A stretch of 20,000 bases of DNA from contig JAYWIR010000069.1 in assembly GCA_036172245.1 (NCBI GenBank), forward strand, positions 425,101 through 445,100. Reading direction: 5' to 3'. This DNA is from Raillietiella orientalis. Its lineage: Eukaryota. The notes under the pieces were generated by a model that was not told where the DNA came from, did not search any database, and saw only the letters and a list, made by a program, of their open reading frames with translations. The translations under genes and the position numbers were made by a program. Shown here one piece after another: positions 1 through 20,000 of the stretch (within the stretch, counting starts at the first letter, position 1; every line of letters starts with the position of its first letter).

Positions 1-2320
1 TTTTTAATTAAAGATGGCCTTATCCTGTTTCATCGCTAAAACTATTCTTCAGTGAAGATGACTTCTGGCTCTCACGGAACTGTCCAAATGCTGCTGGCGC
101 AAAAGAAACGATCAGTTTACTTGCAATCGCCTTAAAAAGGAAGAAAACAACCAAGTTGAGAAGGAAAGACGACAGTGAACTGTTGCACGTCGCAGCTTCA
201 ACGATTTTCCTTTGACGAAATTTAGAGAACTTTGTTTAAGCTGCCATTAGTTGGAGGTCCATTATTCCCGTTTACCGAAGGACATCCGTATGTTTATCAC
301 TGCACCCTGGTTTGAAATTCCAGCAAGATTCTTTGAATTTGCAGCATCCACAGCGTGCTCAGCTTCCATTAGTTCTGATGACTGCGTTTGAGATCGTGAC
401 TTTTACTCATTCTATGGTCTTTTTGACTTGAAGGACATGAAAATTGGGCCCCGAATGTCCACACATTCCAGCCGTTGATGTTTCAACGCCTCACAGCGGT
501 TGCAGGGGACAATCAAGGCAGCGCCACTAAAATTTAAACCGATGTAACATCTGAAATAGCAAGCAGGAGTTAGTTTTTAAGGGCACTGTGCAACTTCACG
601 GGCCGTTCGACCCTCACGTTGCAGTGATGAACAGAATCCAGTAGCTACATTTTGACACACTCAGTGTCTAGCCAGCAAGCATAAGGACAGAGGAGAGGGA
701 GCGGAATCTCAACAAGCATGCAGCTTCTTGAAATACAGGCAAAATGCGTGGGCTCTTCACACTTCCGTAGAAGGGTCGCTCTTTCCATCCTTCTTTCTAC
801 GCGTTCAATGATGCTGAGGGGTGCCACGTGCAACCTTGCTTCCACACGCAGGGGTACCTCCTTTGATTCTCACCATAAGGCAGTAAGTTTCCATTAGGCT
901 GCTCCAAGTGGATTCACCAAACAGATATAAAATAACAAGTTGGAAAAAGCGTTTCCTAAGCAAATAAAACGAAACGAATTCGAAGGGAAGACTTCACCTA
1001 CTCGCAGGTTGTTACTCTGTCATTCTGGAGCGGGAAAGGACAGTAAGTAAGCAAAGTGAGAGAGCATGACGACAGAGATGTACTCAGTACGGATGCAGGG
1101 CGATTGTGATCTCCGGCTCGACTTCCTCTTCCTAGTGAGGGCACCTGCAACAGTTCCATTGGGGGCGGCTGCTGTGAAGTCCCTCCTTCCCTACGATAAC
1201 CACCCTCCTTCACGACGGAAATCCTTCATAGGGCAAAAATAAGATGCGCAATGTAAGCGGACAAGATGCGGGAGCAAAGTTTCATTATTGGCAAATGCGC
1301 AAGTGCTAAAAAGAGTATCTAATCTCGATACATTTCAGCCGCGCTCTCTAATTACATCCACATTCTATTCTGACGCGTTTTCCTTAGTTGTAAATGCGTA
1401 TGAAGGCGTATGATGGTTCTCAGATGCTGCTTGCTGAACCAGAAAACTTTGGACAAGTTGCACAACCCGATTCCGTTTAGTTTTCAAGGTCCAATCCCAT
1501 ATGGGTCTTCTTGCTGTGGACCGCGCCCGTCATAGAAGGAGGCAAGTGAGAATGTCTTCTTGTGTCTTAACAACGCTCTCACGGTCCATTCCTCAAACAT
1601 GCGTCCGACATTTCCATCCGGGGAGTCACAGAGCCTTTTTCACCTTGCTCAACAAAAAGCACGTTTGCTCTTCTTAGAATGCTCATTCCCACTTCGATCA
1701 CCTTGCAGCCGAAAGAAATGGAAACCTCTGAGCGGTGTAGACAGCATCAGTTCTGGAGAAGTCTTGTTAGGCCAAAGCAGAGATGCATTGGTGGGCGGGA
1801 CCGTGCGAACAGCTGGAACACGGCAGGGCGCGCAAGTGAATGCCGCCTCGGCACCACCAGGCCTTGCGTGCTGCTAATGGGCGTCCCAAGGGGAAGATGC
1901 CGCAAAGTCAAGTCGACACGTCGGAATGCTCCAATTTTTTGACTTTTTGAAGATTCCTCACGAGGCCGTGCTGCACGTTTGCCTTTTAAGAATCTGTAGG
2001 CGTGGAAGCACCGAGACCCCATTTGGTTTTCGGAGATTATGCCGAGGTCCATAGACAGTAGGCACTCAGCCTCAGGATGAACTACCTGTGCTGCATCGTG
2101 TTGGTTGTAGCCGCGACTGGTAAATCTCTTTCTGCATGGCGCCTTTGGATAACAGTGGACTGACGATCGGATCGTATGTGAGTGGTTTGCGTCTTCACTG
2201 CTATCCCGAAGCACTCTTGAAAGAACCGCTCTGTGGTGCCTTCCAAGCATGACGTCGTGGATAATAAAGGGGTGGGTGGGCATCTGTCTGAGTGTCCCTT
2301 TGCATTGGTACTCACGTTCT

Positions 2321-2812
2321 GAGGTGATTCGCTTTTTGCACTGAAGTTTGCGCAACAATGAGCGGCGGCACCGTGTTTCTGGTGGGCTGTCTTCCCCTTA
2401 ATGTGCACGGTGGGGTGCGACGGAGTTGTTCTCGCACCTTCTTTTGGACTGCGGTGCCCTCCACGAACTCTGGAGGAGACAGGCAGCAGCACTCCTGCCA
2501 CCGGGGGACACCGCTCGTAAGGAGCTGCTAGGGTTCTTCCAGCCGCAAGGACTTTTGACGGCTGCAATAATTTCGACCGTTGGCTGCATCCTAGCCATCG
2601 TCGCCGTCCGAGACGTGCTGGAGAACATTTGTCAGCTATGTTGTGTAACCAGGAAGGCAGCCAACTTCATCAGGTCGGCAGCTGGGTGGCGACACTCATG
2701 GGAAGACACAACGGAGCAGCTAACCGGTATCCATCGCCGAATGAGAAACGGCTTAGAACGACGAACCCGGTGATCCGCCCTTATTTTATTTTTAATTGAT
2801 TTTTTTTGTTCT
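2321..2812 (+). mobile_element. Copy E: short 3' remnant of the non-LTR retrotransposon (ORF2 C-terminus to TGA 2771-2773, then 3' UTR T-tract)
   Basis: Translates EVIRFLH*SLRNNERRHRVSGGLSSP*CARWGATELFSHLLLDCGALHELWRR...GIHRR, which aligns with copy B DVIMLVHWGFHSNQRTNLVSGGVVSPDCKR*GEVETLPHLLLDCGALLGLWRR...GIHRR. T-rich tract at 2781-2810 as in other copies. Both boundaries are approximate and the terminal AATAAA/stem-loop is missing. Confidence 0.85.
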
Positions 2813-2833
2813 CGCATCCTCCACGGCAAATAA

Positions 2834-3311
2834 TTGCCGGAGGATATCGACCCGGCGGTGGCGTTTGTCGTCGAACGCATGCTCGATGACGTCGCCTTTG
2901 AGCGAGCGGCGGAGCTCGCTGCGTCCTTGCAGCGTCCCCCCAAATCCGCGAAAAAGGACTCAAGGCATCCGATCAAGAAGTCGAAGATTCCGAACTCCGA
3001 CGCAGAGGCGGAAAACAGCCTGCGACATCGCAACCTCCCACCCGAGGGCCAGTCGCACGAAGAAGGCTACCCGCAAAATTATCCCGTCCGTGGAAAAGGG
3101 AGAGATAATCGAGGAAAGCGAGCGTGCGAAGAAAGTAAGAAACTCCGGGAACTCTCCTCCAGAGATAACCCCACGCTGTGACGGCGGAGGGAATGAAAGG
3201 GTAGAGTCTGTGCCCCAGGTGATTCAAGTGCCTGAGATGGCCGCGGTCCCCTTACTCGTCCCTCTCACCTGTCCCTTGACAGGTGCTGCAACGCCACGTT
3301 CCCAGCCTTAA
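2834..3311 (+). pseudogene. Copy C ORF1 C-terminal remnant (frameshifted near 3040)
   Basis: DDVAFERAAELAASL resembles the copy A ORF1 repeat DASFEKAAEELVATL. The second frame ends ...PRSQP* at TAA 3309-3311, overlapping the ORF2 ATG. Confidence 0.7.
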
Positions 3312-4196
3312 TGCCGGGAATCGCCTCTTGCCGCCGTCTGCGAATTGCCTGTTGGAACGTCAACGGGCTAAGCGACGACGGCAAGAGACGAGACGTGGCC
3401 TCCACCCTGGCATCGTTGGACCTGGTGCTACTGCAGGAGATCCACGTGATCTCAGCTGACCAAGCAACGGAGATCAAGCGTATCTCAGGTGGACGGCTGC
3501 TGTGGCGTTGCGGCACCGTTAAATCTTGCGGTGTCGCGTTCCTGCTTCGTCCAGCTGTCGAGACTGCGGCAAAGGGCGTACGGTTTGATAGTGCCGGTCG
3601 CGTCGGGCAGTTGACCATCAGGTGGTCCGACTCTATCGATCTGGTCATTACCAACGTGTACGCCCCAAGCGGCAGCGACGCGCTAAGGGCAAAGGCAAGG
3701 AGAGATTTCTTCCTTACCCTGAGGCGCGAATATCTGGACGAAGCGGGAGTGCGCAAAGCGCACCTAATCGCAGGTGACTTTAACCTGCGCCTGCTGTCAG
3801 GTGCGTCCAACACACTTCGGGACCGCGTGAACGAGCTGTGCGCAGAGATGCACACGCGCAACTTGTTCGCGGGAGATCCAGAAATGGCCGACAGCATAGA
3901 TCACGTGTTTCTTGACCAGCACCTATGCTCACGCGTGGGCAGGCGCGGCAAGTTACCGTCGGAACTGTCGGACCATGACCGGATCGTACTCGAGGTGCGC
4001 CCACGCGATAGGGGTCCGCCGTCATCTGCGTGGCGCTTATTGGGGGACTGGCTGAAACTTCCGGAAGCCGCGGAGCATCTCCGCGGATTCATACGAGGTT
4101 TCAGTTTGCAGACGCTTCAGGACTGGGACCGCTTCAAGCGCTCGGTCCGAGATTTTTGCGACGAGTTCCCTATGAATCTCCTGCCTGCCGGGTTTG
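3311..4196 (+). pseudogene. Copy C ORF2 N-terminal segment: APE (EEP-family) endonuclease and start of linker, interrupted by copy A
   Basis: Motifs WNVNGL, LQEIH, GVAFL, NVYAP, AGDFN, SIDHVF, LSDH. Homology ends at LLPAGF. The ORF-track tail to 4267 is read-through into the antisense 3' UTR of A. Confidence 0.92.
4190..4196. repeat. Target-site duplication of copy A, left copy (GGGTTTG; partner 14180-14186)
   Basis: Identical 7-mer at both junctions, extendable to 10 bp with one mismatch (GGGTTTGCTG / GGGTTTGGTG). Removing the insert restores the ORF2 frame of C. Confidence 0.8.
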
Positions 4197-4406
4197 CTGT
4201 TGCCACCCAGGTACGCCTGGGGCCTTTATTGAAAACTCTACAAAAACGTGATACGAGGCTCCAATAATGGCCAAACAACACCAGACCTGCCGGGACGCCA
4301 GGACGCAGCCCGGCGTGACGCTCCTCGGCAGTGGAGGGGAGTTTGAGAGAAAAAAAAAATAAAATAAAGAAAAACAAAAAAAGTTTGGAGGGAGGCAAAG
4401 GGACCA
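4197..4406 (-). promoter_or_regulatory. Copy A structured 3' UTR: U-tract (4350-4382), stem-loop with CUGCGU loop (4287-4331), AATAAA (4225-4230), terminal stem-loop (4204-4224)
   Basis: Sense strand reads ACGCCGGG-CTGCGT-CCTGGCGT inside CTGCCG...CGGCAG, then AATAAA-GGC-CCCAGG-CGTA-CCTGGG-TG. Same layout in B, C and D. Confidence 0.75.
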
Positions 4407-7400
4407 CTATCCACTAGGAGGAGGGCCAATCCTTCGCAGGATGCCCTCTAGGTTCTTCTGCGTTTGTCCCAGATGGGGCCATCTCGCAGCTCTTCGAATG
4501 AAGCTCACAGCATACGGGGTGACTTCCCTCTCGTTGGCATCCACTCCTTCGTCTCGGGTATCGCTCCAGGCCGCCACGATGCCTCGGATGCAGCAGAGGG
4601 TTGCGAGGGCTGCGGCGGGCTGCAGGACGTCCCGCACGAAGAAGGGCCGAAGAACGTCTCTGGGCGAGCTGCTCATAGGGAGCCCAAGGGTCGTTCCGAA
4701 CCGTTCCCATAGGGGTCGGAGGGCAGCAAAGTCAACGAGTAGGTGGAGGAGCGATTCCCGCTCCCCACACCTGGCACACTCAGGCCTTACACTTCCCCGT
4801 GTTCAGTGGAAGCGGCGCGCGTTGGAGGGTAGACCCCAGTGCAACAGCAGCAGCGCCGTTTCCTGCCACTTCAGGGGAAGAAGCCTGGATCCAAGTAATA
4901 CTGGGGGCCACTCCAGGTCATCCGTCGGGATGCCGAGCAGCTCGCCTCATCTAACAACTCCACGCGGGAGGGCACTCGGGATCGTGGTATCAGCCAGTTC
5001 TTCCATGGTCCAAGCGCTCGTCTTCTTTACTCTGCCTGCGATTCGGCAGGAGACTTGCCACTTTGGCGTCCGGCCGCTGGTTAGAGCCCTCCGTAAGAAG
5101 AATAGCGTCGAAGCTAAAGGGGTTATCTCCGCTCACGTGCTCCTGGCGGGACACTAAAGAGTGGTCCGTAGGGTGCAGCAAGCGTTGGGGCCGAATCGCA
5201 GGCGGTTCCAGTCATATCCGGTAGGTTGGTTCAACTTGGCCCACGTCCCAACGGATTCCTCCAGCCAAGCGGAGGAGTTGGCGGGGCTGCATATTGTCCA
5301 GCCGTTTTCACTTACCAGGGCTTCCATGTGTCCAAGGAGAAGGCCGCATCTCCTGACGTTCCGGCAGGGACACAGAAGCAAAGACGCGAGACCTTGCCTC
5401 CTGGATACACGGCTGCGAGGATGCGGGCCGGAACGCACCAAGGGGTGTTCCATGTCTTTGCTGCGATGGCCAGGGTGCGCCATCGCAGCTGCATGTCCAG
5501 GCACCCTAGCGTCAGGAGGCCAAGACCACCGTCACGACGCGGAGCGCATGTGTCCTTAAGAGGCGCACATGGCCTCCCACTGCCCCAGAGGGCGCTGCGG
5601 AGAAGGCTTTTGGTCCTCTTATTCAACACACGGGGGACGGGGCAAACAAAAAGCAGGAAGCGAAGGATGGGAGCCGCGAACGCGTTTTACACCGCGGCCC
5701 GTTCCGGTAGAAGGAACTTGCCATCCAAGAACGAGCCGATTGCCAACTCTACCTTTCGGATACGACCTGACCAGGCTTCTCCGAGACAGAAGTCCCCCAA
5801 CGGGACACCTAGGTACTTCAGGCACCTGGCCGCGGGGATTCCCAAGCGGATCCAGTCAGGCTGTCCAGCCCACGTCACCCCCACCACTACCACCGAAGAC
5901 TTCGCCTTGTTTACCCGCAATCCAGTCCCACGGCTTAGCAGACCGAAGAAGTCCCCAAATGCGGCTTCCGGGACGGACATGGGCAACATCAGCACGAGAT
6001 CGTCGGCGTATGCTGCAACGGCGGGCGTGCCGGGGCGCGAGCTAGGCAAGGCAGCCAAGGTTGCCCTGTACGCTCTTAGCACCAACACAAAGTAAGTGCT
6101 AAAGAGCAGGGGACTGAGGCTATCGCCCTGCCGTATGCCCCGCCGTACCGGCACGCCATACACCTGTTGACCTGAAAAACTGACCTTAATTATGGCGTTG
6201 CGCCAGCAGTAGCGCAGGTAGGAGAGAAAAGAGGGTGGGAAGCTCATGCGACCCAGGAGCTCAAACAGTAGCTCCTGGTCCACGCAGTCGAACGCCTTAT
6301 GCAGATCGACCGCGATCGCTAGGGCGCCCTTCCCTGCCCCGGTATCCATTCCCAGCCCGGCTAGCGGCCCCAAAGTGGGGTTGCCAATGTTGGCCCCGGT
6401 TTCGTTCGGACAACGCTGCACATGAAACCATGTGCTCGCGAAGAACAGGTTAGCATCCATACTTCGCCCGGGAACGGCATATGTCTCTTCCGGGCTAATT
6501 ATGGAGTCTGCCACCTGTCCTAGACGCAAAGCTCACAGTCCAGCAATTAGCTTGGCGTCCGTGTACACAATTGTGACCGGACGCCAATTGCTCAGTGATC
6601 TCAGGTCTCCTCCCTTTGGGAGGAGCCTCCCTCGGGCTGACCGAAACGAGGCGGGAACGTCGCCTTCGTCGCGGATCAGCCCGGTCAACTGAAGCACCAG
6701 GGGGGACAGCTTTGCCGCGAAGCATTGGAAAAACTCCGCGGGCAGGCCGTCCTCTTCTGGAGCCTCACGCCTCTTGAGCCTTTTAATACCGGCGAGAATT
6801 TCACCGGTAGTAAAAGGCTCGTCGAGGTTCATCCTTTCGTCCTCCCCTATTGCCGGGGCTTCGTCCGGAAGCAGCAGCCGCGAGGCATCCTGCTCTAGGG
6901 GTGTTTTGGCGTAGAGGGAGGAATAAAACCGTCGCACAAGGTGCCTGATCGCGGGTGGGGCAGAGCGCTCCCGCCCCTTGTCGTCCAGCAGGCTGGCCGA
7001 CCCGGATTGCCAGACTTGGCGCTCGACCCCCGCTCGATATTCGGCCAGGCGACGGACATTGGGGGTCCTCTCGTACCGTCGGACCTGTAAATAGGCCGTA
7101 TGGTTGCGAGCCCCCTCCCCAAATCCGGGGGGCAGGCGGTGCAAGGGGAACTCCTCGAAGAACTCGCGAACCGAGGCCTTAAAGAGGTCCCAGTCAGCGA
7201 GATTCCGGAAGGTGACGCCTCTCAGGAATTGGCGAAGGTGTTCTTTCGCCCCCGTGAGTCGCGTCCAGTCCCCAGGCATACGCCACGCCCTGGAAGGTGG
7301 TCCTTTGTCGCGCGGGCATATCTCGACGATTATGCATGAATGGCCCGACAGCGTCGACGCAACTTTCCCCCGTTTGCCGACCCGCGAGCACAGGTCGACA

Positions 7401-7818
7401 TCCAGGAAGAAGTGGTCGATGCTGCGGTCCATTCCCTCCGCGTCCGCCAACAAGTTGCGCGTGCGCATGGCAGCGCACAACTCGTTGGCCGTGCGTTCTT
7501 CTGCTTCGGGCTGACCTGACAGCACACGGAGATTTAGGTATCCAGCTATCAGGTGAGCCTTGCGCACGTTCATATCCGCCAGCCAGTCGCGCTTCATGGT
7601 TTCCAGAAACCTGGTGCGGTCGCTGTATTCCTGTTTTCCGCTGGGGGCGTAGACATTCGTGACGATCATTTCGATCGAGTCGGACCAGCTGAGAATCAGA
7701 TGACCGACCCGACCGTCGTCATCGAAGCGCACGCCCTTCACGGCAGCGTCGATGGCCGGCTTCACGAAAAACGCGACCCCACAGGTGTTGCGGGCGCCGC
7801 ATTGCCAATACAGCCGAC
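4407..7818 (-). pseudogene. Copy A ORF2 main part: rest of APE endonuclease, reverse transcriptase, C-terminal CCHC
   Basis: NVYAP, SIDHFF, APEEDGLPAEFF, NWRPVTI, DLHKAFD, GIRQGDSLSPLLF, YADD (5999-6010), KYLGVPL. In-frame stops at 6533-6535 and 5687-5689, a frameshift near 5390 and further lesions downstream. The catalytic GDFN is mutated to GYLN. Confidence 0.93.
7810..7818. repeat. Target-site duplication of copy B, left copy (ACAGCCGAC; partner 11968-11976)
   Basis: Identical 9-mer at both junctions. Excision restores the endonuclease frame of copy A. Confidence 0.88.
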
Positions 7819-8174
7819 GAAGGCACCCTCTAAGAGTGCTGGACCAGCTTCAGCTGCCACCAAAGAAAAGGCAGGCGAAACGCCCGCCGCGCGCGCGGAA
7901 TTCGGACTCCGAGGTGGAGTCCGAGGGTAGCGCTAAGGCTCGCCAAGCCCCGGTCAAGGCCAGGGCTGCGCGCAAGCCAAAACTTGCCAGGCAAGAGCCT
8001 GATGCCGGGAACGGTTCCCTATGCTCCTCGGAGACCAAGGCAATGGTCCTCGACTCCACCGAGCCGGCCGCGAGAGGCGCGGCGGGGACAGGAAGCGCTT
8101 GCGCTACCTCATCCGCCGTGCTCCCGGCTGATGCCTCGCCGGACGGTGCGAGGAACGCACCTCCATGTCCGTAG
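7819..8174 (+). pseudogene. Copy B ORF1 C-terminal remnant (low-complexity K/R/A/S-rich)
   Basis: Open frame PPKKRQAKRPPRARNSDSEVESEG...PPCP*. The NSDSE motif matches C (PNSDAEAE), A (GESDRE) and F (DSETESE). The stop lies 5 nt before the ORF2 ATG. Confidence 0.72.
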
Positions 8175-8179
8175 CAGCA

Positions 8180-11100
8180 ATGCGCGGTCTCGCTTCTTAC
8201 CGACGCGTCCGAGTGGCCTGTTGGAACATCAACGGGCTGCAGGACAACGAGAAGAGGCGATTGGTTGCCAACGTGTTGCGCGACTTCGATCTGGCCCTTC
8301 TGCAGGAGATTCACGCACTCTCCGAGCAGCAAGCGGCCGATTTGCAAGTTCGCGCAAGCGGGATGCTCCATTGGAGGTCAGGCTCCCAGAATACCTGCGG
8401 AGTCGCATTCCTTGTCCGGGGCAGTGTGGCAGGAGCGGTGCGGAGCGTTTGTTTCGACGAGGAAGGTCGTGTGGGCCAACGTGTCCTCAAGTGGTCCGAA
8501 TGGATCAACCTTGTCATCACGAACGTGTACGCGCCGTGCGGCTCTGCGCGTCACACCGAGAAACTGGAGTTTTTCCAGAGACTGCGCGACCGCTGGCTGA
8601 GGAACTCCGGCCCCGACGTGGCTCACCTCGTAGCCGGCGACTTCAACGTCCACGCGCTATCGGAGGAGTCTCACCGTCGCCGGGAGAAGCGGCTGGTGAA
8701 CGAGGTGTGCGCGTGCGTGCACGCCTCGAATTTGCTGGCCGACGATCCCGGGATGCGTGCTTTGCCGGACCATGTGTTCCTCGACGATCACCTGCATTTT
8801 CGGGTGGGTCGAAGAGGTCCCGTGCCGTCCGGGCTTTCCGACCACTACAGGCTGGAGTTGGAGTTACTCCCGCCTGGCAAGGGCCCTCCGACGCACGTCT
8901 GGAGGTTGCCGGCCGACTGGTTGAGAAATCCGGTGGCTGCGGAGCACCTCCGCCAGCATCTCCGGACCTTTGCCTTTCCAGAGCTCGTGGACTGGGACGA
9001 TCTGAAAAGATCGGTCTGCGAGTTCTGCAGCCGGTTCCCCTTGCGCCTGCTTCCCCGTGGCTTCGGAGAAGGTGTGGCCAACAGCAGAGAGTTTCTGCAG
9101 GCCCGCCAATTCTCCCGATGCCCGGACGTCCGGTACCTTGCGGAGTACAAGGCCAAGGCCGATCGCCAGGTCTGGCAGTCAGGAGCGGCTTGTCTGCTCG
9201 ACGACCAGGGCCTGGAGTGCTCGGGAGCGGCCGAAGTTCGCCGCCTCCCAAAGTGCTACTACTCCTCGTTGCTTGCTAGGGAGCCGACGGAACGCAGTCT
9301 CTCGGAGCTGCTTCTGCCGGCGGATTCCCCTACGGTCAACGAGGAGGAACGCACCACTCTTGACATGCCCTTCACAGCGAAAGAAGGGTCTTCCGCCATA
9401 GCGGGCCTCAAGAAGCGCTAGGCGCCAGGTGAGGATGGTTTGCCTGCGGAGTTCTTCCAGTGCTTCGCGGCGGAACTCATCCCCCTGGTGCTGAGGCTTT
9501 CTGCGCTGATGCGAGAGACGGGCAATGTCCTAGCCTCGTTTCGCTCAGCAAGGGTGCGTCTCTTGCCGAAAGGCGGAGACATGCGCCATTTAAACAACTG
9601 GCGTCCCATCATCTTGATGAATGCGGACGTCAAGTTGTTCTCCAGGCTGTGGGTCGCGCGCCTAGGCAGGATCGGTGGATCCGTGGTAAGTCCGGAGCAG
9701 TCTTACGCTGTTCCCGGGCGGTCCCTGGAGGCGAACCTGTTCTTCACGCGCACGTGGCTCGAGCTGCAACGTTGCGTGGCGCACGACAGCCAAACAACCG
9801 CATCTGCGGCTGCCCAGGCTAGGCGTCGCTGCATTAGGCCTGGGGAAGCGCCGGGTGCCTTGGCGGTCGCGGTCGATCTCCGCAAGGCGTTCGATTGCGT
9901 AAATCAGGATCTCCTGCTGGAGCTCCTGCAACGCCTCGGTCTCCCGGTGCACCTCGTGGCGTATTTGCGCGCTTGCTGTCGCCACGCCCTCATTTCCATC
10001 TCTTTTAGCGGCTGCCACGTGTACGGCGTGCCGGTGCGGCAAGGCATCAGGCAGGGCGACAGCTTAAGCCCGTTGCTCTTCAGCATCTTCTTTGAGTTGG
10101 TGCTGAGGGCGTACAGGCTGACGCAGGCCAACCTGCCGAGCTGTTGTCCAGGAACGCCGTCCGTGGCAGCCTATGCTGACGATCTGCTTCTCCTTTTACC
10201 CATGACCACCCCGACGTCCAGTCTCGAGGATTTCTTCGAGCTGATTCGCCGGGGATTGGGCATGAGCGTAAACCGGAGCAAGAGCGTGGTCGTACCTATT
10301 CGTGCGGCGTGGGAGGGGCAGTCCGACTGGATCCGCCTGGGGATCCCGACCGCTTCCACCATGCAATATCTGGGCGTTCCGCTGGGGAACATCAGCTCAG
10401 TGGAAGTGTGATCGGACTGCCTTCGGAAGGCTACGAATGCCCTGAGCCCGTTCCACCATGGCAGGTTCGTCCTGCCGGAGCGGGCCACGATATGGAACAC
10501 CTTCGTTGCCCCCCTCTTGCGCCCCTTGCTTTTTGTTTGCCCGCCCCCCTACTCGGCCAAGCTCCAGGCGCACAGCCTGTTGAGGAACGCTCTGTGGGGA
10601 CCTGCGAGGTCCAGGATACGCCTCAAAGACTTGGAGGCTCCGCGTCGGGATGCTGGTTTAGGCATCCCGACGCTGGAGAGAATCGAGCTGCAGGTGCAGC
10701 TTCGGATGTTGGCCCTGTGCGCCAACCTTTGGTCTACTCCCTGGTGCGCTTCCGCGTGCCTGCTTCTGCGACGCTGCACAGGCAGCAATGGACTTCTGTC
10801 GCTGCGGCCGCACACGGAGCGCGCCACGAGAAGCTTCGGTTTACCCTTGAAACCGCTGTACCGGCTCCTGGAAGCCCAGGAATGGATCTCCTGCCGCCCA
10901 ACGAACTTTGAAGCCTGTCGGCAGGAACCGTTGCATGGCTGGGCAAAGCACCAGGATGTTTCCCTCCTGAAACTCCGTTGCGCTCACCTCTCACCGTACT
11001 GCACGGTGGATGAAGTGTGCAACAGCCAGGAGAAGTGGACTCGCCTGGCCGTCACGCCCCTCGCCGATGCGCTGTCAGCCCTCAGGGGAAGAGATGACAG

Positions 11101-11743
11101 CTGCGATCCGGTGAGATGGGAGGTCGCCTGCGCCATCGCAGGAACAACCCGACCTATTGGCGGCTGGAGGACTTGCGAGCTGAAAGATACCGCCACGCCT
11201 CGCCACATACCGAAGGGACTCCTTCGGTGGAGCGAACACTTGAGTGTGCCCCCCGAAGAACTTTTGGTCCCTCCCTCGTGTTTGAACACTTCTGTGTTCC
11301 TTCTTTCGTGGAATCAGGACGTCATCATGCTGGTGCATTGGGGTTTTCACTCCAACCAGCGCACGAACCTTGTTTCCGGGGGAGTTGTCTCCCCAGACTG
11401 TAAGCGGTGAGGGGAAGTGGAAACGCTCCCGCACCTGCTCTTGGACTGCGGTGCTCTCCTAGGACTGTGGCGGAGGCTGGCCTCAGCTCTCCTGCACCAG
11501 GGGGACACCGCGAGGGATTCGATGCCCCGCTTCTTCACGCCAGGCGGCCTGTCCTTAGGTGCTGTTGTTGCAACCGTGTGTTGCATTCGCGCCATCGACA
11601 AGGCCCACCGACAACCTGAGAAGTTGGCCATCCTTCGTCAGCCCACCGGATTAGCCAGCGCCAGCATGTCGTCGGCAGCCGAGTGGGCGCATCTTCCAGA
11701 GAGCGTGAGGAAGGAGATCGCCGGCATCCATCGCCGGTTCTGA
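8180..11743 (+). pseudogene. Copy B ORF2 (APE endonuclease, RT, CCHC): 1188 codons in one frame with three premature stops
   Basis: ORF-track pieces 8165-9421, 9440-10411, 10517-11410 and 11417-11743 share a frame, with stops at 9419-9421, 10409-10411 and 11408-11410. Motifs WNINGL, LQEIH, NVYAP, GDFN, SDH, APGEDG, NWRPIIL, DLRKAFD, QGDSLSPLLF, YADD (10172-10183), YLGVPL, DAGLGIP, CKR*GEVETLPHLLLDC. The ATG at 8180 aligns with the other copies; 8165 is an alternative. Confidence 0.95.
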
Positions 11744-11967
11744 AAGGAAGGAACGGCAGAACCAAAGACCCCTGTCCCCTGCCCTCCATATCTTTATTTT
11801 TATTTTTTATAGTAGTGAATTTGTGTTCCCCTCCCTTCCGTTCCGGACTTTCGGCATACCGACCTGCGTGTCGGGGATGCCAGCCCCTTCGTTACTCTAT
11901 GTCCTTTGTCCGGAAACTTTGTTTCCGGATTGTTTGTAATAAACGCCCCGGCGCAACCGGGTGATAA
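11744..11967 (+). promoter_or_regulatory. Copy B structured 3' UTR: U-tract (11791-11810), CUGCGU-loop hairpin (11853-11881), second hairpin (11909-11929), AATAAA (11938-11943), terminal hairpin (11944-11963)
   Basis: GGCATA-CCGAC-CTGCGT-GTCGG-GGATGCC; TCCGGAAAC-TTT-GTTTCCGGA; CGC-CCCGG-CGCAA-CCGGG-TG. Confidence 0.78.
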
Positions 11968-11976
11968 ACAGCCGAC
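11968..11976. repeat. Target-site duplication of copy B, right copy (ACAGCCGAC)
   Basis: Matches 7810-7818. Confidence 0.88.
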
Positions 11977-12157
11977 TCCCCGTGATCGTCTCGATCTCCT
12001 GGACGTCTTCCGCGGTGATCACGTGGATCTCCTGCAGCAGGGCCAGGTCGAACTCACGCAGGGTATCGGCCGTATCTCGTCTGTTGCCGTCGTCGCGCAG
12101 CCCGTTGACATTCCAACAGGCCACGCTTATCCGACGGCAACAAGCGAGCCCAAATGT
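11968..12157 (-). pseudogene. Copy A ORF2 N-terminal segment (start codon decayed to ACA)
   Basis: (T)FGLACCRRISVACWNVNGLRDDGNRRDTADTLREFDLALLQEIHV...GSRL aligns with MPGIASCRRLRIACWNVNGL of C. Confidence 0.9.
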
Positions 12158-14079
12158 TAATCCTGGGAGAGTGGCAGTGCGGCGTCCGCCACCTTTTGGG
12201 CCGGGACGCTTGGAGGAGGACAGGTCGGTGCGTCGAGCACCTGTTCCTCCTCCTCCATTGGTGTCGGCGCGTTAGGCGGATCGCCCGAAGGTGTGGTAGC
12301 GCCTACCTGATCGCCCTCCTCAATAGGGGCGGGCTTCTCGGGTTCGGCGCATGCAGAGTTGGCTTCGTTTCATTGCTCACCTTCCTCCATAGGCGTCGCC
12401 TGTGCGCCGGCTTCCGAGCGTGGGAGTTCCCCCTCCGGGTTTCCCACGCTACCTTCGGCTTCCGGATTCTCCTCCTCGTTCGAAACGGTAGGGCACCTTT
12501 TGGGCTTTTGGGACTTCCGTTCTGCCTTTCGAGGAGGCGCCTCCGCGGAGGATGATGAGTTGCCGGCCTCCCGGTCGGACTCACCTGCGGGAGGCATTTT
12601 CCTCGGAGGCGGCCTGCGAACGCCCTTACGCGACGGGGTTTCGCGCTCGTCGAGCGTTGCCACGAGCTCCTCCGCGGCCTTCTCGAAGGACGCGTCTACG
12701 CTGCCGGCGAACGTCGCCGCAGGCTGCTCCGCGGCCTTCTTGAGGGACGCGTCATCGCTTCCTCCCAACGTTGCCGCGAGCTCTTCCGCGACCTTATCGA
12801 AGGCCGCGTCATCGCTTTCGTCAAACGTTGCCGCGGGATCCTCCGCGACCTTATCGGACGCGGCGTCCTCGCTTTCGGAGCGCGAGTCCCGCGTCTCATC
12901 CTCTAAACTTAGAGTGAGCTCGTCCACGCTCGTTTCGATCGCGACCCCATGAGCTGTTTGCTGAACATTGCCGCGGGCGACCTTCGCAGGAACGGCTAAG
13001 CGTTCCAATGCCACCGAGCACTCGCGGAGTTTTTTTGAAAGCGGCGCGGCTTCTTTCTTTTTGCCGGCAGTTTTCTTCTCCGACTTTTGCTCTCCCAGAA
13101 TCTTCTTTTTTTCTTTTCTGACCTTAACCATTTGCCATCCCTCCTGCACTCCCGCGTCTTACGCGGTTTCATCCTCCGACGCCTAAGTGGGAGGAGGAGG
13201 AGATGGCTGCTGGGGCTGGCCATTGTCACGCGCTGGTCTTTCCACCAGCTTTCCGCGCTTTCCCTGTGCCTTTTTGGCAGCAGGGGGAACCGGGGTGGGC
13301 GCTTAGGGCACACGCGTCGCACGTGCCCCTTCTCCCCGCATAAGTGGCACACAATGTTCGGGCACCTCTTTCTAAGATGCCCTACTGCATTGCAGTAGCC
13401 ACAAAATTGGGGTTTCCTTACGAACCAGAGGTCTACCGGTTCTTGGCAGACCTCCAGTTTGTGGAGAAGCGCACCACCTTCTTTCACCGTGACACGCGCC
13501 GCGGCCTGGCCTCCGAAAATGCTATTGAAGCCATCAAAAATCGTGGGCTTCGGCCAGAACGCGTGCACTTCACCGTGCTTCCGCAGCTCATCACCAACCG
13601 CTGACCGCGTCATGCGGCTGGTGATTCCGGTAAGATGGACCACTACAGAGCGGTCCATTATCACCGGAAAGATCTTCCGACCATCAACGATCAGCAAATC
13701 AGTGATCAGGCGTTGGATCGAGGTGATATCTTTGCATACCACCTCGACCTGCTGACCCCCGCTGAGGAGGGAGAGGCTGTCAAGACCTTGCTCCCGAATA
13801 TTTGCGTTCTGCAGCGCGTTCGAGAAGGCTCGTGCAGTCCGCTTATCAAATAATGGTCCTACCTTATATATGAGCGAGGGTTTATATCCTGCTGACCGGT
13901 AGGCCATTTGTTCCGATAAGGCTTCGGCGCTGGGCGCTGCCACCATGGCACTCCTAGTCCTCATCTGTAGCGGCGGGTAAAGATTCCGGGGCGGATGCCC
14001 CTGATCCAGTAGGCTGTGGGGGCGAACTACCCTTCCCCAGGCCTACTTCCATCGCGGTGTCCTCTGGCAACGCTGCCAT
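12157..14079 (-). pseudogene. Copy A ORF1 (gag-like nucleic-acid-binding protein): probable RRM-like region, two CCHC zinc knuckles, long charged low-complexity tail
   Basis: CGYCNAVGHLRKRC and CHLCGEKGHVRRVC (CX2CX4HX4C) lie in the 13964 frame. A frameshift and stops near 13165-13200 lead into the 13149-12370 frame, which continues past a TGA (12370-12372) to TAA 12157-12159. The start is either ATG 13964 or ATG 14079 with one more frameshift. The RRM call is inference from VVVHLTGI...VGDELRKHGEV. Confidence 0.85.
12646..12873 (-). repeat. Coding tandem repeat, 4 x 57 bp (19 aa), in the copy A ORF1 tail
   Basis: SEDAASDKVAEDPAATFDE / SDDAAFDKVAEELAATLGG / SDDASLKKAAEQPAATFAG / SVDASFEKAAEELVATLDE. 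Confidence 0.9.
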
Positions 14080-14179
14080 CGGACACCGACGATGTGCACG
14101 CACAAATCACTCAAGAAAAAACCACTCGCCTTGCCACGCAGGCGAAGCGAGGGAAAATCACGTCCACTTACTCACAAGA

Positions 14180-14186
14180 GGGTTTG
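14180..14186. repeat. Target-site duplication of copy A, right copy (GGGTTTG)
   Basis: Matches 4190-4196. Homology to C resumes exactly here. Confidence 0.8.
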
Positions 14187-14974
14187 GTGGAGGCGTGCGT
14201 AACGAGAGATGGTATTTACAAGCTCGATATTACGCGCGAACACCAGACGTACGCAAGTTAGCCGAATACCGTGCGGGAGCCGAGAGGCAGGCGTGGCAAT
14301 CCGGGTCAGCCAGCTTACTGGACGACCAGGGCTCGGAGCACTCGGCTCCCGCCCAGGTAGAAGGCTTATTAAAAAAATTCTACTCCTCCCTGTACGCGCG
14401 CGCTCCACCGGAACGGGATGTCTCGCGACTTCTTCTTCCGGAAGGCCCTCCGGCGATCGGGGAGGAAGATAGAAGGACCCTCAACGAGCCTTTCACGATG
14501 GGCGAGATCATCTCGTTCATCAAAAAGCTTAAGAGGCGCAAGGCTTCAGGGGAGGACGGCCCTCAAGAGGAATCCTGTCGACGTTTTGCGGCAGAGCTCA
14601 CTCCCCTGGTAAAGAAATTCACCTTGCTGATCCGCGAAACGGGCGACGTCCCCGCCTAGTTTCGTTCGGCAAAGGTGCGTCTCCTCCCTAAGGGAGGAGA
14701 CCTTCGGAGCATGAGCAACTGGCGGCCGATTACAGTGATCAACGCGGACGCCATGTTGCTGGCGAAATTGTGGGCTGAACGCCAAGGGCGATTAGCATAA
14801 AGCTTCATCAGCCCGGAGCAGACATATGCTGTTGCCGCCAGCACCTTTTCGCCCTCCAACAGGAAAGGGTCAGGATGAGCAATCGGACTTCCGGAATGTC
14901 CGCTGCTAGGAAACGGGATGGTTGGGAAGGGAGGAAGCCCTCGGAGTTGCAGTCGATTTGCATAAAGCATTCGA
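14187..14974 (+). pseudogene. Copy C ORF2 middle segment (linker and N-terminal RT), decayed
   Basis: RTPDVRKLAEYRAG, KASGEDG, LLPKGGDLRSMSNWRPITV, AVDLHKAFD. Stop at 14657-14659, further stops, and an apparent internal deletion after EQTYAV (~14835). Confidence 0.9.
14960..14974. repeat. Target-site duplication of copy D, left copy (GCATAAAGCATTCGA; partner 16388-16402)
   Basis: 14 of 15 identical to GCATAAATCATTCGA. It encodes HKAFD of the host RT. Confidence 0.92.
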
Positions 14975-15193
14975 TTTTCACCCGGATTTCGCCGGGGCGT
15001 TTATTGTTAAATAAACTTTTACAAAGACGTGCGGTGGCTGGACTACTGCTCCAGCCACGCACGAAAAAACACAGAGCCTGCCGGGTCACCGGTTCGCAGA
15101 CCGGTGCGGTCCACCACGGCAGCAGGGGGAAGGGGGAAAAACAAAAAAACAAAACAAAAAAGAGAAGAAATGTTGGGAGGGTAAGGGAAGGGA
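14975..15193 (-). promoter_or_regulatory. Copy D structured 3' UTR: U-tract (15137-15170), CUGCGA-loop hairpin (15078-15122), second hairpin (15028-15063), AATAAA (15000-15005), terminal hairpin (14979-14999)
   Basis: CACCGGT-CTGCGA-ACCGGTG within CTGCCG...CGGCAG; CGTGCGTGGCTGGA...TCCAGCCACCGCACG; CGC-CCCGG-CGAAAT-CCGGG-TG-AAAA. Confidence 0.78.
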
Positions 15194-16387
15194 TCACAGT
15201 CGCTGGTGGGGCTGTTGCATCCTTTGCAGGATGCCGGCAAGCTCCTTCTGTATTCCTGGATCCAGGTGGGGCCATCGGGACGCCCTCCTCAGGAACTGGG
15301 AGGCTGGCTGGATGGCACTCTGGTCGCGTTGTCCTCCCGTAGCCTTGCTCCAAGCGGTGACGATCCCGCGTAGGCAGCACAAAGCTGCTAACGAGGCCGC
15401 TGGCCGAAGGGCGTCGGCAACGAAGAGGGCTTTCAGTGCGCCCCTGGGGTTGCCGCAAAGGATTCCGATGGCCGCGGCAAAGCGAAACCAAAGGGGCCGA
15501 AGGGCAACACAATCCACTAGCAGGTGGGGGAGGATCTCCCGTTCCCCACACCTGACGCAATTGGGGTCCACCGCTCCCCAGGTCCAGTGGTGTCGGCGGG
15601 CGTTGCAGGGGAGTCCCCAGTGCTGCAACAGGAGAGCCGACTCCTGCCATTTTAAGGGGAGGGCGGAAGTGTTCATGAGCACCGGGGGCCACTTCAGATG
15701 TTCAATGGGAACATCGAGCAGCGCGAACCAGCGCAGAAGTCCATTGGGAGGCGTACTCGGGGTCGCAGCGTCTGTTAACTGGCCCGTCTCCCACTCTCCT
15801 ATCTTCTTCTCCTTTCCTGAGATTGTTACTTTAACCACCCACTTCGCCGCAACATCGCTGTCCAGATCTTCTATCAGGGAGGGCAGCGCAGCAGCGAGGG
15901 GGGTTCTTCCTGCCCACGCTCTCTTCTTTGGATCCTCCAGGATCTCGCGGAGCGTGCAACTTCTGTAACCCCCAAACAGGAACCTTCGTTCCTGTTGGGA
16001 GCGGTGCATGCCGAACTGTCCCCACGTTCGAACGGTTTCCTGCAACCAGGCACTACCGTTCAAAGGGCGACAGGTGAGCAATCCTGGGTTTTTCCGATAC
16101 AGCGCAGCCACCCTCCTTAGCTGGAGTCCGCATCGGTTGACGCGGCGACTGAGTGCAAGAAACGACGTCAGTCCCGTCTTGCCGGTGGCTTGCTGGAGAA
16201 GGAGACGTGCAGGGACGCACCAACAGGTGCACCACAACTCTGGAACGAGTGCCGACAAGCGGAACTGGAGCTGAAGCTCCAGCCGCTCCAGCGTCAAGAG
16301 GCCCAGACCACCATCCCGACGAGGAGCGCACAAGTCCTTTGAGCGGACTCGGGCCCTCCCGTTGCCCCAAAGGGCGATACGGAGGAG
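15194..16387 (-). pseudogene. Copy D ORF2 C-terminal fragment (post-RT region and CCHC finger), stop-free but with no start of its own
   Basis: LLRIALWG...RDGGLGL...CVRCGEREILPHLLVDC...RWPHL. The ORF-track ATG at 16411 comes from host copy C, outside the insertion. Confidence 0.9.
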
Positions 16388-16402
16388 GCATAAATCATTC
16401 GA
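16388..16402. repeat. Target-site duplication of copy D, right copy (GCATAAATCATTCGA)
   Basis: Matches 14960-14974 with one mismatch. Confidence 0.92.
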
Positions 16403-18282
16403 CTGTGTCAACCAGAGGCTCCTGCTGGAGCTCCTGGAACGCTTGGGCTTCCCGGTCTCTTTGCTGACCTACCTGTGATCCTGTTGGCGCGACGCGCTTA
16501 TCCAGATCTTTTTCAGTGGACACACCGTGCACGGCGTACCGGTGCGATGTGGCATACATTAGGGAGACAGCCTGAGTCCCTTGCTCTTCAGTACCTACTT
16601 CGAGTTAGTACTGAGAACGTACAGGGAAACTCTGGCGCACCTGCCGCGCGAATGTACCGGTACTCCTGCGGTGTCAGCATATGCAAACGACTTCCTGCTG
16701 CAGCTCCCTATATCCATCCCGGCATCAGCGGTCGACGAGTTCTTCGACCTGCAAAGTCGGGGAACCGGGCTTGAGGTGAACAGGGCGAAGTCGTCCTTCA
16801 TGCCAATGGGTGCGGCGTGGGCAGGGCAGCCGGACTGGTCCGTTTGGGGATCCCAACGGTACAGTACTTCAAGTACCTCGGTGTACCGATGGGTGATTAT
16901 GTTCTTTCGGATGCGTGGTCTAGCTGCCTTCAAAAGGTAGAGACGGCGATCGGCCCGTTCCAAGGCCGCAGGTTTTTCCTGCCGGAACGGGCCGCGGTGT
17001 GGAACGCATTCGCGGCGCCCCTCTTCCGTTCCCTGCTTTTTTTTTGTCTTCTCACCACAGAAACTAAAAAGCGGACGAAGGACCTCCTAAGGATTGCCCT
17101 GTGGGGTAATGGGAGGGTCCGAGTCCGTCTTGAGGACTTGAGCGCTCAGCGTCGGGACGGCGGTCTCGGCCTCCTGACGCTAGAGCGACTGGAGCTCCAG
17201 CTTCAGTTTAGATTACTGTCCCTAGTGGCGAAGTATCGGAGTACGGTTTAATGCGAGTTCGCACGCCTCCTCGTCGAGCAGGCTACAGGCAAGGTGGGAC
17301 TGTCATTCTTCCTTGCGCTCCGTCGTCGCCGCCAAGTCGGTCACTGAGGGTTGCAGCTGCGGAGAGTGGCTGACCTCATATGGAAGAACGCGGGATTGCT
17401 CTGCTGTCGCCCCGTTAACGGACCTGCATGGCTGTAGGAACCGGTTCAGACGTGGGCAAGGAGCAACCAGCAACGCACCCAAGAAGAACAGAGACAATTC
17501 TTCGCCCGTAATGACCGCCTGACGCTCCAGGAGGTCCTGGAGAACCCCCAAAAACAAGCCTGAGCAAGGAAAAATCCCCTCGCTGCAATGCTGCTTTCCC
17601 TAGTGGAATATCTGGACAGCAACACTGCGGCGCAATGGGGAGTTAGAGTAAAAATCTCCGGTACGGAGAAAAAAATTGGGGAATGGAAAACGGGAATTCT
17701 CTGCGATACCGCGGCCCAGACTACCACCCCTATTGGACTTTTGCGCTAGGGCGAGCTGCTTAATGTTCCGCGGGAACAATTAAAGTGGCCCCCGGTGCTG
17801 ATGAACACCTCCACCCTCCCCTTAAAATAACAGGAGTCGGCGCTACTGTTGCTGCATTGGGGACTCCTCTGCAGCGCCCGCCGACACCATTGGACCTGAG
17901 GAGCGGTGAGCCCTCATTGTGCAAGGTGTTGAGAACGGGAGTCCCTCTCTCACCTTTTTTTGGATTGTGTGGCTGTTCAGCCCCTTTGCAACCGTTTTGC
18001 CGCGGCAATCGGTATTCCCTGTGGCAACCGCAGAGACGCAGTTAGATCCCTCTTCGTTTGCGACGCCCTTCGGCCATCTGCCTCGTTAGCAGCTCTGTGC
18101 TGCTTTCGCGGGATCGTCGCTGCATGGAGCAAGGCAACAAGAGGACCACGAGATAAAGGTGCCGTCAAGTGCGCAGCCGAATTTATGAGGACGGCGACAG
18201 GATGGACCCATCTGGATTCAACAATTTAAAAACAGCTTTTGGCATCCTGCAAAGGATGCAAGGGCCCCACTGCAGACTGTGA
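16403..18282 (+). pseudogene. Copy C ORF2 3' segment (RT core to C-terminus), strongly decayed
   Basis: GDSLSPLLF, YAND (YADD mutated, 16680-16691), KYLGVPM, RDGGLGL, HLFLDC. Many stops (e.g. 17249, 17561, 17747, 17828, 17897) and frameshifts. Natural TGA at 18280-18282. Confidence 0.92.
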
Positions 18283-18508
18283 TCCCTTCCCGAGCCCCCC
18301 AGATCCTGTTTTCATATATTTTTTTTTTTTGTTCTATTTTTTGTTTTTTCCTTGCCCCCTCTGCTGTCGTGGTGGACCGTACCGAAATACGAACCGGTGA
18401 TCCGGCAGGCTTAATTTTGTGTACACCAGTGCGTGGCCGGGCCACCAGGTGAGCCACCAACGCTTGTTTTATTCGAACGAATAAACGCCTTGGCGCAGCC
18501 GGGTGAGA
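18283..18508 (+). promoter_or_regulatory. Copy C 3' UTR: U-tract (18309-18350), decayed first hairpin (18364-18408), AATAAA (18480-18485), terminal hairpin (18486-18505)
   Basis: Alignable to the D 3' UTR. The terminal CGC-CTTGGC-GCA-GCCGGG-TG keeps pairing through G-U pairs. Confidence 0.72.
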
Positions 18509-19318
18509 AGCAAGTTCGCGGATGACGGAGATCCGGAGGTGCTGACGGAGATGATCCGCCGCCTCCGGATGGCTATGCCAGTCCGCCAGCATCCTCCAGT
18601 TCTTCAACGGAGGCCCCTTGCCTGGCGCAAGGAGCTCGAGCTCCAACCTGTGATGGTCAGAGAGAGGAGACGGCAATCGTCCTCTCCTTCCCACACGAGG
18701 GTGCAGGTTGTCATCGAGGAAGATGTGATCCGGCGACCTTTCCATCTCAGATACGCCGACCATCAAGCTGGAAGCGCGTACTGACGCGCACACCTCGATG
18801 GCCTACGTGCGCTCCCTCGGGCAGTTCCAATCGTCAGAGAGCAGGTGGACGTTGAAGTCCCCTGAGACGAGTTGCGTCACTTTGAAGCTGGAGTTGTTGA
18901 GCCAGCAACATTTCACTTTCTCGAAGAGCGCAATTCCATCTTCGAGGTAGCAAGAGCCACTCGGCGCGTAGATGTTCGTGATGACGAGATCGATGGACTC
19001 GGACCACTTAACAACAAGTTGGCATTCCCGTCCTTTGCTGTCGAAACGAACACTTCGCACCGCTTCCGCCATTTTTCCTCTTGCGAGGAACGCGACGCCG
19101 CACGTTTGTGGGTCGCCGCACCGCCAAAGTAGCGTTCCGCCTGCGCGCTCTGCGATTTCGACAGCCTGCTCGTCGGAGATTACGTGAATCTCCTGCAGGA
19201 GCACGAGGTCAAAGGAGCGCAGGGCGTTGGCTACTATTCGCCTCTTCTCGTCGTTCTGCAGTCCGTTCACGTTCCAACACGTGACGGACAGGCGACGAGA
19301 AGAAGCTATTCCCTGCAT
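18509..19318 (-). pseudogene. Copy F ORF2 APE endonuclease with one in-frame stop (18803-18805)
   Basis: MQGIASSRRLSVTCWNVNGL, LQEIH, NIYAP, SGDFN, SPDHIF, LSDH. Confidence 0.92.
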
Positions 19319-20000
19319 TAATGCTGGGAAGTTGGCGGCTTTTTGCCCGTTTTTACAGGCGAGCGGTCGGTAAGCAGCACTGCTGGCTGGAGATCACGGC
19401 CGACACCGTCCTCCATAGTGCTGCACGAAATCGAGTGCTCGTCTCCGGGTAGCGTCGTTTGACGTTCCAGGGTGAACTCTCGCTCCTTCGCGGCCTTCGC
19501 TGCGCGCCCCAGGGCATTAGCGCGGCGCGCTACGGCTTCCGTGCGGGTGATACGACGTGCGGCGGTGATCTCAGACTCCGTTTCTGAATCTTATTGAAGC
19601 GCGGTCGCTTCGCGACTCACCTGTCGTGTCGATTCGGAAGTGGACGCTGATGCAACTGCGGTGAATTCCTTTATCGCGATCAACGGGGCATCTTTCCTGG
19701 CGATCGCATCTTTCGCGCTATAAGCGGTTGCGGCGGTAGCTTTTGCAATGGCAGAGGGAACCTTCGCGCGAGTTTTCTTCATCGCGCTACTGTTTCGTAG
19801 CTTGCAAAGGCTCTTGGAAGTAGGTTGCTGAGAATTTTTGGGAAATTTTATTTTTCTCCCTTTCTCCACAACCGTCCACCCACCGTCCGTTTCCTCGGAG
19901 CGCTCCTCGACTTTCTTGAGAGACGCCTCCGAGCTTTTCTCCCCAACCGCCTGGGGCGCTGCTTTTGCTGCACCCTTAAAAGGCGGTAATGGCGCAGCCT
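19318..20000 (-). pseudogene. Copy F ORF1 C-terminal region (K/A/E-rich, with internal stops), partial
   Basis: KSLCKLRNSS resembles PLSKKLRECS of A ORF1. DSETESE motif. Same frame as the TAA overlapping the ORF2 ATG. Confidence 0.68.

Follow-up and report, generated by a model that had tools for sequence, protein, structure and literature searches.

Islands of long interspersed nuclear elements (LINEs) nested in one another are already known from green-algal centromeres, and strand bias within LINE nests is likewise known. The L1-type element Zepp of Coccomyxa subellipsoidea C-169 (formerly 'Chlorella vulgaris') forms nested clusters, one per chromosome (PMC3446292). Clusters of ZeppL, also of the L1 type, lie at the centromeres of Chlamydomonas (ZeppL-1_cRei) and its relatives, which have been genetically mapped and are hypermethylated (PMC8226300, PMC9940879) and CENH3-bound (10.1101/2025.03.28.645958). 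For human L1 inserted into L1, Table 3 of PMC2836564 counts 21,559 sense against 9,899 antisense cases (2.18 to 1), a bias that its authors put down to sequence features inherent in L1 and Alu. Within the L1 clade, a 'stringent' mode of recognising the 3' end has been described for LINE1-1_ZM and L1-1_CR (Ohshima 2012, PMC3472496), and five of the 15 green-algal L1 families in Table 1 of that paper have no 3' repeat. Here we describe a LINE island in a 20,000-nt stretch of DNA (the window), positions 425,101 to 445,100 of contig JAYWIR010000069.1 in the Raillietiella orientalis assembly GCA_036172245.1, in which L1-like elements were inserted one into another at least three times.

Three nested insertions and their order

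The element map was made by tblastn of open reading frame 2 (ORF2) of element B (1204 aa) against the window, and all coordinates refer to the whole window (Table 1). Six LINE elements were mapped: E(+), C(+), A(-), B(+), D(-), and F(-). LINE sequence exclusively fills 2285-20000 (~17.7 kb), with a sharp left edge at 2285. The spaces between the protein matches are untranslated regions (UTRs) or ORF1 belonging to the same elements, hence this interval contains no further repeat type, as the preliminary description of the locus had proposed. The GC content is 57-63% from ~2300 onwards and 44-50% to the left of it, and a tblastx search of 1-2830 against the remaining window matched nothing left of ~2315. 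On both strands, Pfam identified domains of an apurinic/apyrimidinic (AP)-type endonuclease and of a reverse transcriptase, and it placed a CCHC zinc knuckle in the minus-strand ORF at 12996-14042. Neither Pfam nor Rfam revealed a gene or RNA family in the window.

Table 1. Features of the LINE island, in window coordinates. TSD, target site duplication; aa numbers refer to ORF2.
Feature	Coordinates	Strand	Description and evidence
Non-LINE flank	1..2284		Left edge of the island; GC 0.479; no Pfam, no Rfam match
E	2285..2815	+	LINE 3' fragment: ORF2 C-terminus and first ~70 nt of 3'UTR; tblastn match 2285-2743 = aa 1050-1203
C, piece 1	2816..4199	+	5'-truncated in ORF1 linker (5' boundary approximate), then ORF2 endonuclease to aa ~311; tblastn 3305-4195, aa 15-311, 0 stops; Exo_endo_phos E 5e-14
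TSD of A	4190-4199 / 14180-14189		GGGTTTGCTG / GGGTTTGGTG; 9/10 identical
A, 3' part	4200..7818	-	3' motif (4200-4230), 3'UTR, ORF2 aa 79-1203; tblastn 4428-7813; RVT_1 E 7e-16; 3'-end alignment
TSD of B	7810-7818 and 11968-11976		ACAGCCGAC; 9/9 identical
B	7819..11967	+	4149 bp; 5'-truncated in ORF1 linker; ORF2 of 1204 codons at 8132-11743, also delimited as 8165-11743, one frame with three stops (translation); tblastn 8132-11740; 3'UTR closing with the common terminal motif (11938-11967); Exo_endo_phos E 1e-16, RVT_1 E 1e-22
A, 5' part	11977..14179	-	ORF2 aa 9-73, acidic linker, ORF1 (12370-14042 in the element map), 5'UTR; tblastn 11987-12181; translations; repeats; zf-CCHC
C, piece 2	14180..14974	+	Right TSD copy of A, ORF2 aa ~304-583, left TSD copy of D; tblastn 14162-14833, aa 304-527
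TSD of D	14960-14974 / 16388-16402		GCATAAAGCATTCGA / GCATAAATCATTCGA; 14/15 identical
D	14975..16387	-	1413 bp; 5'-truncated at ORF2 aa 816; tblastn 15218-16387, aa 816-1203; 3' motif 14975-15005
C, piece 3	16388..18510	+	Right TSD copy of D, ORF2 aa ~585-1196, 3'UTR with terminal motif 18480-18509; 3' end placed within 1 nt; tblastn 16392-18238, aa 585-1196
F	18511..20000	-	ORF2 aa 2-285 and upstream ORF1 linker running past the window end; tblastn 18512-19363; Exo_endo_phos E 6e-7

Three nests are proven, namely B(+) in A(-), A(-) in C(+), and D(-) in C(+), because each insert is bounded by a target site duplication (TSD) and the interrupted reading frame closes again once the insert is removed. 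For the frame test, the insert and one copy of the duplication were deleted and the protein match was followed across the scar. A without B gives a single-frame match from aa 9 to 878 across the B site, and C without A and D gives a single-frame match from aa 15 to 1196 across both sites. Decay follows the nesting order, with 14 in-frame stops in C, six and one frameshift in A, three in B, and none in the 393 aa of D. The fragments E and F carry two stops in 154 aa and one in 284 aa, respectively. The GC content falls with age towards the flank value given in Table 1, being 0.614 in B, 0.597 in A, 0.596 in D, 0.570 in C, and 0.540 in E. The nests, their duplications and restored frames, and the graded decay had all been reported in the preliminary description and are borne out here. 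The same applies to its observation that C(+) abuts a broken F(-).

At this last junction, the complete 3' terminus of C sits exactly where the endonuclease of F breaks off at ~residue 285, and the 3' part of F is missing. Reverse transcription of C therefore began in F. No remainder of F follows beyond the other end of C, where the truncated 5' end adjoins E(+) in the same orientation, and comparison of the flanks by eye found no TSD for C. E stops at ~2815, its 3'UTR tracking the other copies in the 3'UTR alignment up to a T-rich tract and lacking the terminal 3' motif described below. Exactly at the E/C junction lies an imperfect palindrome (CCTCC-A-CGGCAA / TTGCCG-GAGG; 2813-2845), which folds as DNA at -12.4 kcal/mol (z = -3.2; 0/200 shuffles fold as well). 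The joining of the 5' end may have left this palindrome behind as a snap-back or hairpin trace. The sequence of events starts with E and F, which were already in place when C inserted with its 3' end in F. C then received A and D, and A received B.

The lack of a duplication at the E/C and C/F junctions, which also do not match each other, would be expected if repeat copies had been chimerically joined during assembly. Such an artefact is very unlikely for the island, as a mis-join would not yield the exact or near-exact duplications and restored frames found at the other three junction pairs.

The insertion of D in C has placed two 528-nt inverted arms (15239-15766 and 17711-18238) 1.9 kb apart, and these are 78% complementary. 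A transcript reading through both arms could fold back on itself.

Element type, 3' terminus, and divergence of the copies

The elements have an L1-like layout, consisting of an ORF1 with two CCHC knuckles and an ORF2 that encodes an AP-type endonuclease followed by a reverse transcriptase and a putative Cys-rich tail. The N-terminal endonuclease domain (PF03372) was detected in B, C, and F and the reverse transcriptase domain that follows it (PF00078) in B and A. For the putative Cys-rich C-terminus there was a weak, sub-threshold zf-RVT match (PF13966) in D only (E 0.002; 19.2 bits vs the 27.5-bit cut-off). TSDs of variable length (9, 10, and 15 bp) and 5' truncation, seen in B, C, and D, are also of the L1 type. 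A poly(A) tail, a further trait of the L1 type, is absent from all four complete 3' ends, which stop at ...GGGTG(A/G)NAA and are followed directly by the duplication or the flank.

Element A, with an own length of 5822 bp, is nearly full length and includes ORF1. Its ORF1 (12996-14042) encodes the two CCHC knuckles (zf-CCHC E 1.5e-5, two stretches) and contains one frameshift. The linker between ORF1 and ORF2 of A holds four tandem 57-bp units (12632-12859, minus strand coding), which encode 19-aa acidic repeats of the pattern D-A-x-F-[DE]-K-[AV]-A-E-[ED]-L-A-A-T... A single unit resembling this repeat occurs in C at ~2870-2925 (+), and C, at ~4277 bp, starts inside its own ORF1 linker. B, C, and F have in common a 'DSExESE'-like motif just upstream of ORF2. 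A PsbP_2 Pfam match at 19591-19998 (-) inside the ORF1 linker of F is below the cut-off (E 2.8e-4) and was treated as noise, not as a sign that the host is photosynthetic.

In place of a tail, the complete 3' ends of A, B, C, and D (4/4) carry a ~30-nt terminal motif, AATAAA(C/G)GCC..GGCG...C.GGGTG..AA. This terminus is kept despite an overall identity of just 66-73% between these copies. The conservation of the terminal sequence is solid, while a hairpin structure within it is just a suggestion. On the strength of the conserved terminus, the reverse transcriptase may recognise its own 3' end ('stringent' priming). In each complete element the AATAAA precedes the final base by a constant ~24 nt, which is the spacing of a polyadenylation signal, yet the DNA has no A-tail.

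The copies had been taken as one family in the preliminary description. Where alignable, their pairwise DNA identity is 66-73% and their protein identity 42-61%, with the differences mostly at third codon positions, which points to distinct lineages instead. In 10/10 pairs, identity at codon position 3 (0.36-0.58) was lower than at position 2 (0.63-0.79), although choosing the alignments by similarity of the proteins gives positions 1 and 2 an advantage. Because third positions are far less alike than second positions, the copies represent at least five old lineages that evolved separately and diverged under selection. About 4% of random codon changes create a stop. From the stop counts, the neutral decay of each copy can be roughly put at only ~2-9%. 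As this is small against the 27-34% difference between copies, they must already have been different lineages at insertion.

An exhaustive protein search returned close matches to P0025 (619 aa, 58% identity to B), P0032 (76%, 106 aa), and P0068 (61%, 132 aa). The next match was 36% identical and the others listed were mostly at 25-33% and at most 37%. P0025 is 69% identical to A in the reverse transcriptase region, and word-indexed protein searches returned distant relatives alone apart from it. The best named matches were plant LINE-1-like proteins at 25-27% identity, and no named algal relative was among the protein search matches. A FastTree phylogeny of 99 reverse transcriptase segments, which is unreliable for deeper placement of the group, joined A, B, and P0025 with full support. 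Their branch is long (1.22) and falls outside the L1 group of land plants. Among metagenome contigs, 80 loci were kept, all ≤32% identical and thus too distant for a count of nests in this group, and prokaryote genome contigs gave two distant matches. The nearest Atlas clusters, which serve as leads only, comprise generic proteins of the reverse transcriptase and CCHC kinds from a mixture of taxa. The second-best database match, P0026 (36% identity, 1555 aa), contains the same reverse transcriptase fragment several times in tandem, probably because the gene model spans an array of tandem LINE fragments in another organism.

Many long ORFs in the window overlap the true LINE frames, either out of phase with them or on the other strand. 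These are probably by-products of high GC. One of them, a 481-aa open frame at 7834-9279 (+) overlapping real LINE frames, was the sole such ORF scanned and had no Pfam match.

Orientation, target sites, and origin of the island

The preliminary description emphasised that every readable insertion was antisense to its target and lay in ORF2. An antisense orientation is found in all three proven nests (p 0.125 one-sided, 0.25 two-sided), and addition of the C/F junction gives 4/4 (one-sided p 0.0625). The first count left out the same-strand E(+)/C(+) junction, with which antisense junctions number 4/5. The antisense pattern cannot be told from chance and a strand bias is not established. The location in ORF2 holds as an observation and fails as a signal. 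ORF2 makes up ~62% of A and ~84% of C, so that the chance probability of all three nests falling within it is ~0.44 and their doing so carries no information.

Two mechanisms could produce a real antisense bias in self-nesting. The endonuclease site might be strand-asymmetric, or same-strand nests might be lost when direct repeats recombine. Such a bias would accord with the three antisense nests and the C/F junction, and strand bias of LINE-in-LINE nests exists elsewhere, in human L1 (PMC2836564, Table 3). Beyond the p-values and the same-strand E/C junction, further features weigh against it. The base composition is near strand-symmetric, with A ~ T and G ~ C in every copy, the three nick sites have no motif in common, and recombination between copies is unlikely at 66-73% identity. 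We consider a true bias unlikely.

The targets themselves lie at ORF2 residues ~77, ~308, and ~580, with ~285 for the C/F junction, and no common motif was seen among the three target sequences or nick sites. The Tx1-like sequence targeting that had been raised for the locus does not agree with these unrelated targets. Although all resolved insertions are located within related elements, which speaks for integration at one specific in-element site, the scatter of positions, the unrelated sequences, and TSDs of 9, 10, and 15 bp contradict such targeting in this window, and it is extremely improbable.

With modest confidence, we favour a reading in which the island grew as one LINE after another inserted into a niche defined by region, in the manner of the Zepp/ZeppL islands. 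LINEs would have been integrated into older ones by target-primed reverse transcription, each event leaving a TSD of 9-15 bp and most copies being 5'-truncated. It may have been steered to the region by chromatin or a tethering factor and not by a DNA motif, because at least five long-separated lineages are present and the three targets differ. A mode of growth of this kind has been proposed for Zepp/ZeppL islands. Relative orientation is taken as unbiased in this model pending a genome-wide count. The regional niche suggested at first reading is thus retained as the plausible best account of 17.7 kb of LINE-only sequence with a sharp edge to 48% GC.

It is possible, if doubtful, that the island arose passively instead. 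Insertion would then be near-random, with copies surviving only in a gene-poor, low-recombination region, and nests would form without targeting. The three sites without a target motif, the lack of any gene or RNA family in the window, and the age and graded decay of the copies are all in line with this. Passive accumulation is less able to explain why no other repeat kind has gathered in 17.7 kb and why at least five distinct lineages are all found here. Three consecutive landings inside a few kb of earlier LINE sequence would also be improbable, except where LINEs take up much of the genome.

Several observations weigh against the niche reading and its details. Regional targeting is seen in one window, and passive survival in a tolerant region would look identical. 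The E/C and C/F junctions misfit a clean insertion, and a deletion or rearrangement must be assumed, the simplest account placing it at the 5' junction of C. At the 3' end, a 5-6 bp hairpin can be drawn, but the copies differ in it by one-sided changes only, with no double compensatory change, and it folds no better than shuffles (z -0.5 to -1.2). Finally, the CpG observed/expected ratio is ~1 even in old copies, which leaves no mutational trace of heavy cytosine methylation.

The same ratio is found in young copies, and TpA is not raised. Repeat-induced point mutation (RIP) is expected to raise TpA. We see neither a RIP-like signature nor heavy methylation decay in the copies. The flank has a CpG ratio of 0.82, which we take, by typical values, to be not vertebrate-like.

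A more far-reaching proposal is that these elements belong to an undescribed poly(A)-less L1-like group, many old lineages of which persist by inserting only into each other's copies, preferentially on the opposite strand. Such a group would build islands rich in inverted repeats, of which the 528-nt arms at 15239-15766 and 17711-18238 are an example. These islands could act as a centromere or supply double-stranded RNA, and their host would not have to be a green alga. We regard this combination as quite unlikely.

Comparison with known LINE nests

The island is closest in architecture to Zepp and ZeppL, a likeness that concerns how the island is built. In both cases LINE-only islands are formed by insertion into earlier copies, 5' truncation is frequent, and several nested copies occur within tens of kb. 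The self-nesting that characterises Zepp and ZeppL is seen here within 17.7 kb, which holds the three proven nests as well as two more junctions between LINEs. Like Zepp, which has 61% GC against 53% in its surroundings (PMC3446292), the present copies exceed their flank (57-61% vs 48%).

The differences concern the elements themselves and the way they are nested. Zepp and L1-1_CR end in poly(A) according to Table 1 of PMC3472496, whereas the present elements lack it. The nests of Zepp are described in PMC8226300, citing Higashiyama 1997, as 3' ends arrayed in tandem, whereas here the nests alternate in strand. A term search of a CENH3/ZeppL preprint found no published strand count for Zepp/ZeppL nests, and the passages of the other papers, to which that search was not applied, gave none. 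The ORF1 of Coccomyxa Zepp is described as having neither an RRM nor a CCHC motif (PMC5203782), whereas two CCHC knuckles are present here. In Chlamydomonas a single ZeppL family is involved (PMC9940879), in contrast to the at least five lineages of this island.

Three other systems share single traits. The human L1-in-L1 insertions analysed by Levy, Schwartz and Ast (2010) are also LINEs within LINEs, but they are sense-biased, while the few cases here are antisense and no motif of the kind invoked there is visible. LINE1-1_ZM and L1-1_CR resemble the present elements in that their 3'-terminal sequence is conserved and may form a small stem-loop, although the hairpin is weakly supported here and there is no partner short interspersed nuclear element. 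Tx1-group LINEs have an ORF1 of the RRM/CCHC kind. They are similar in inserting into other repeats and differ in that the targets here are three and unrelated. The Atlas clusters nearest to the present ORF1 consist of CCHC proteins from animals, and this serves only as a lead.

The window documents a series of nestings that can be dated, and a LINE group whose conserved 3' end is not poly(A). If each chromosome of the host proves to have one such island and the lineages occur nowhere else, the list of centromere-like regions built by LINEs would gain another case, possibly an independent one. It would then stand in contrast to the known cases, as many coexisting lineages would occupy such a region instead of one family.

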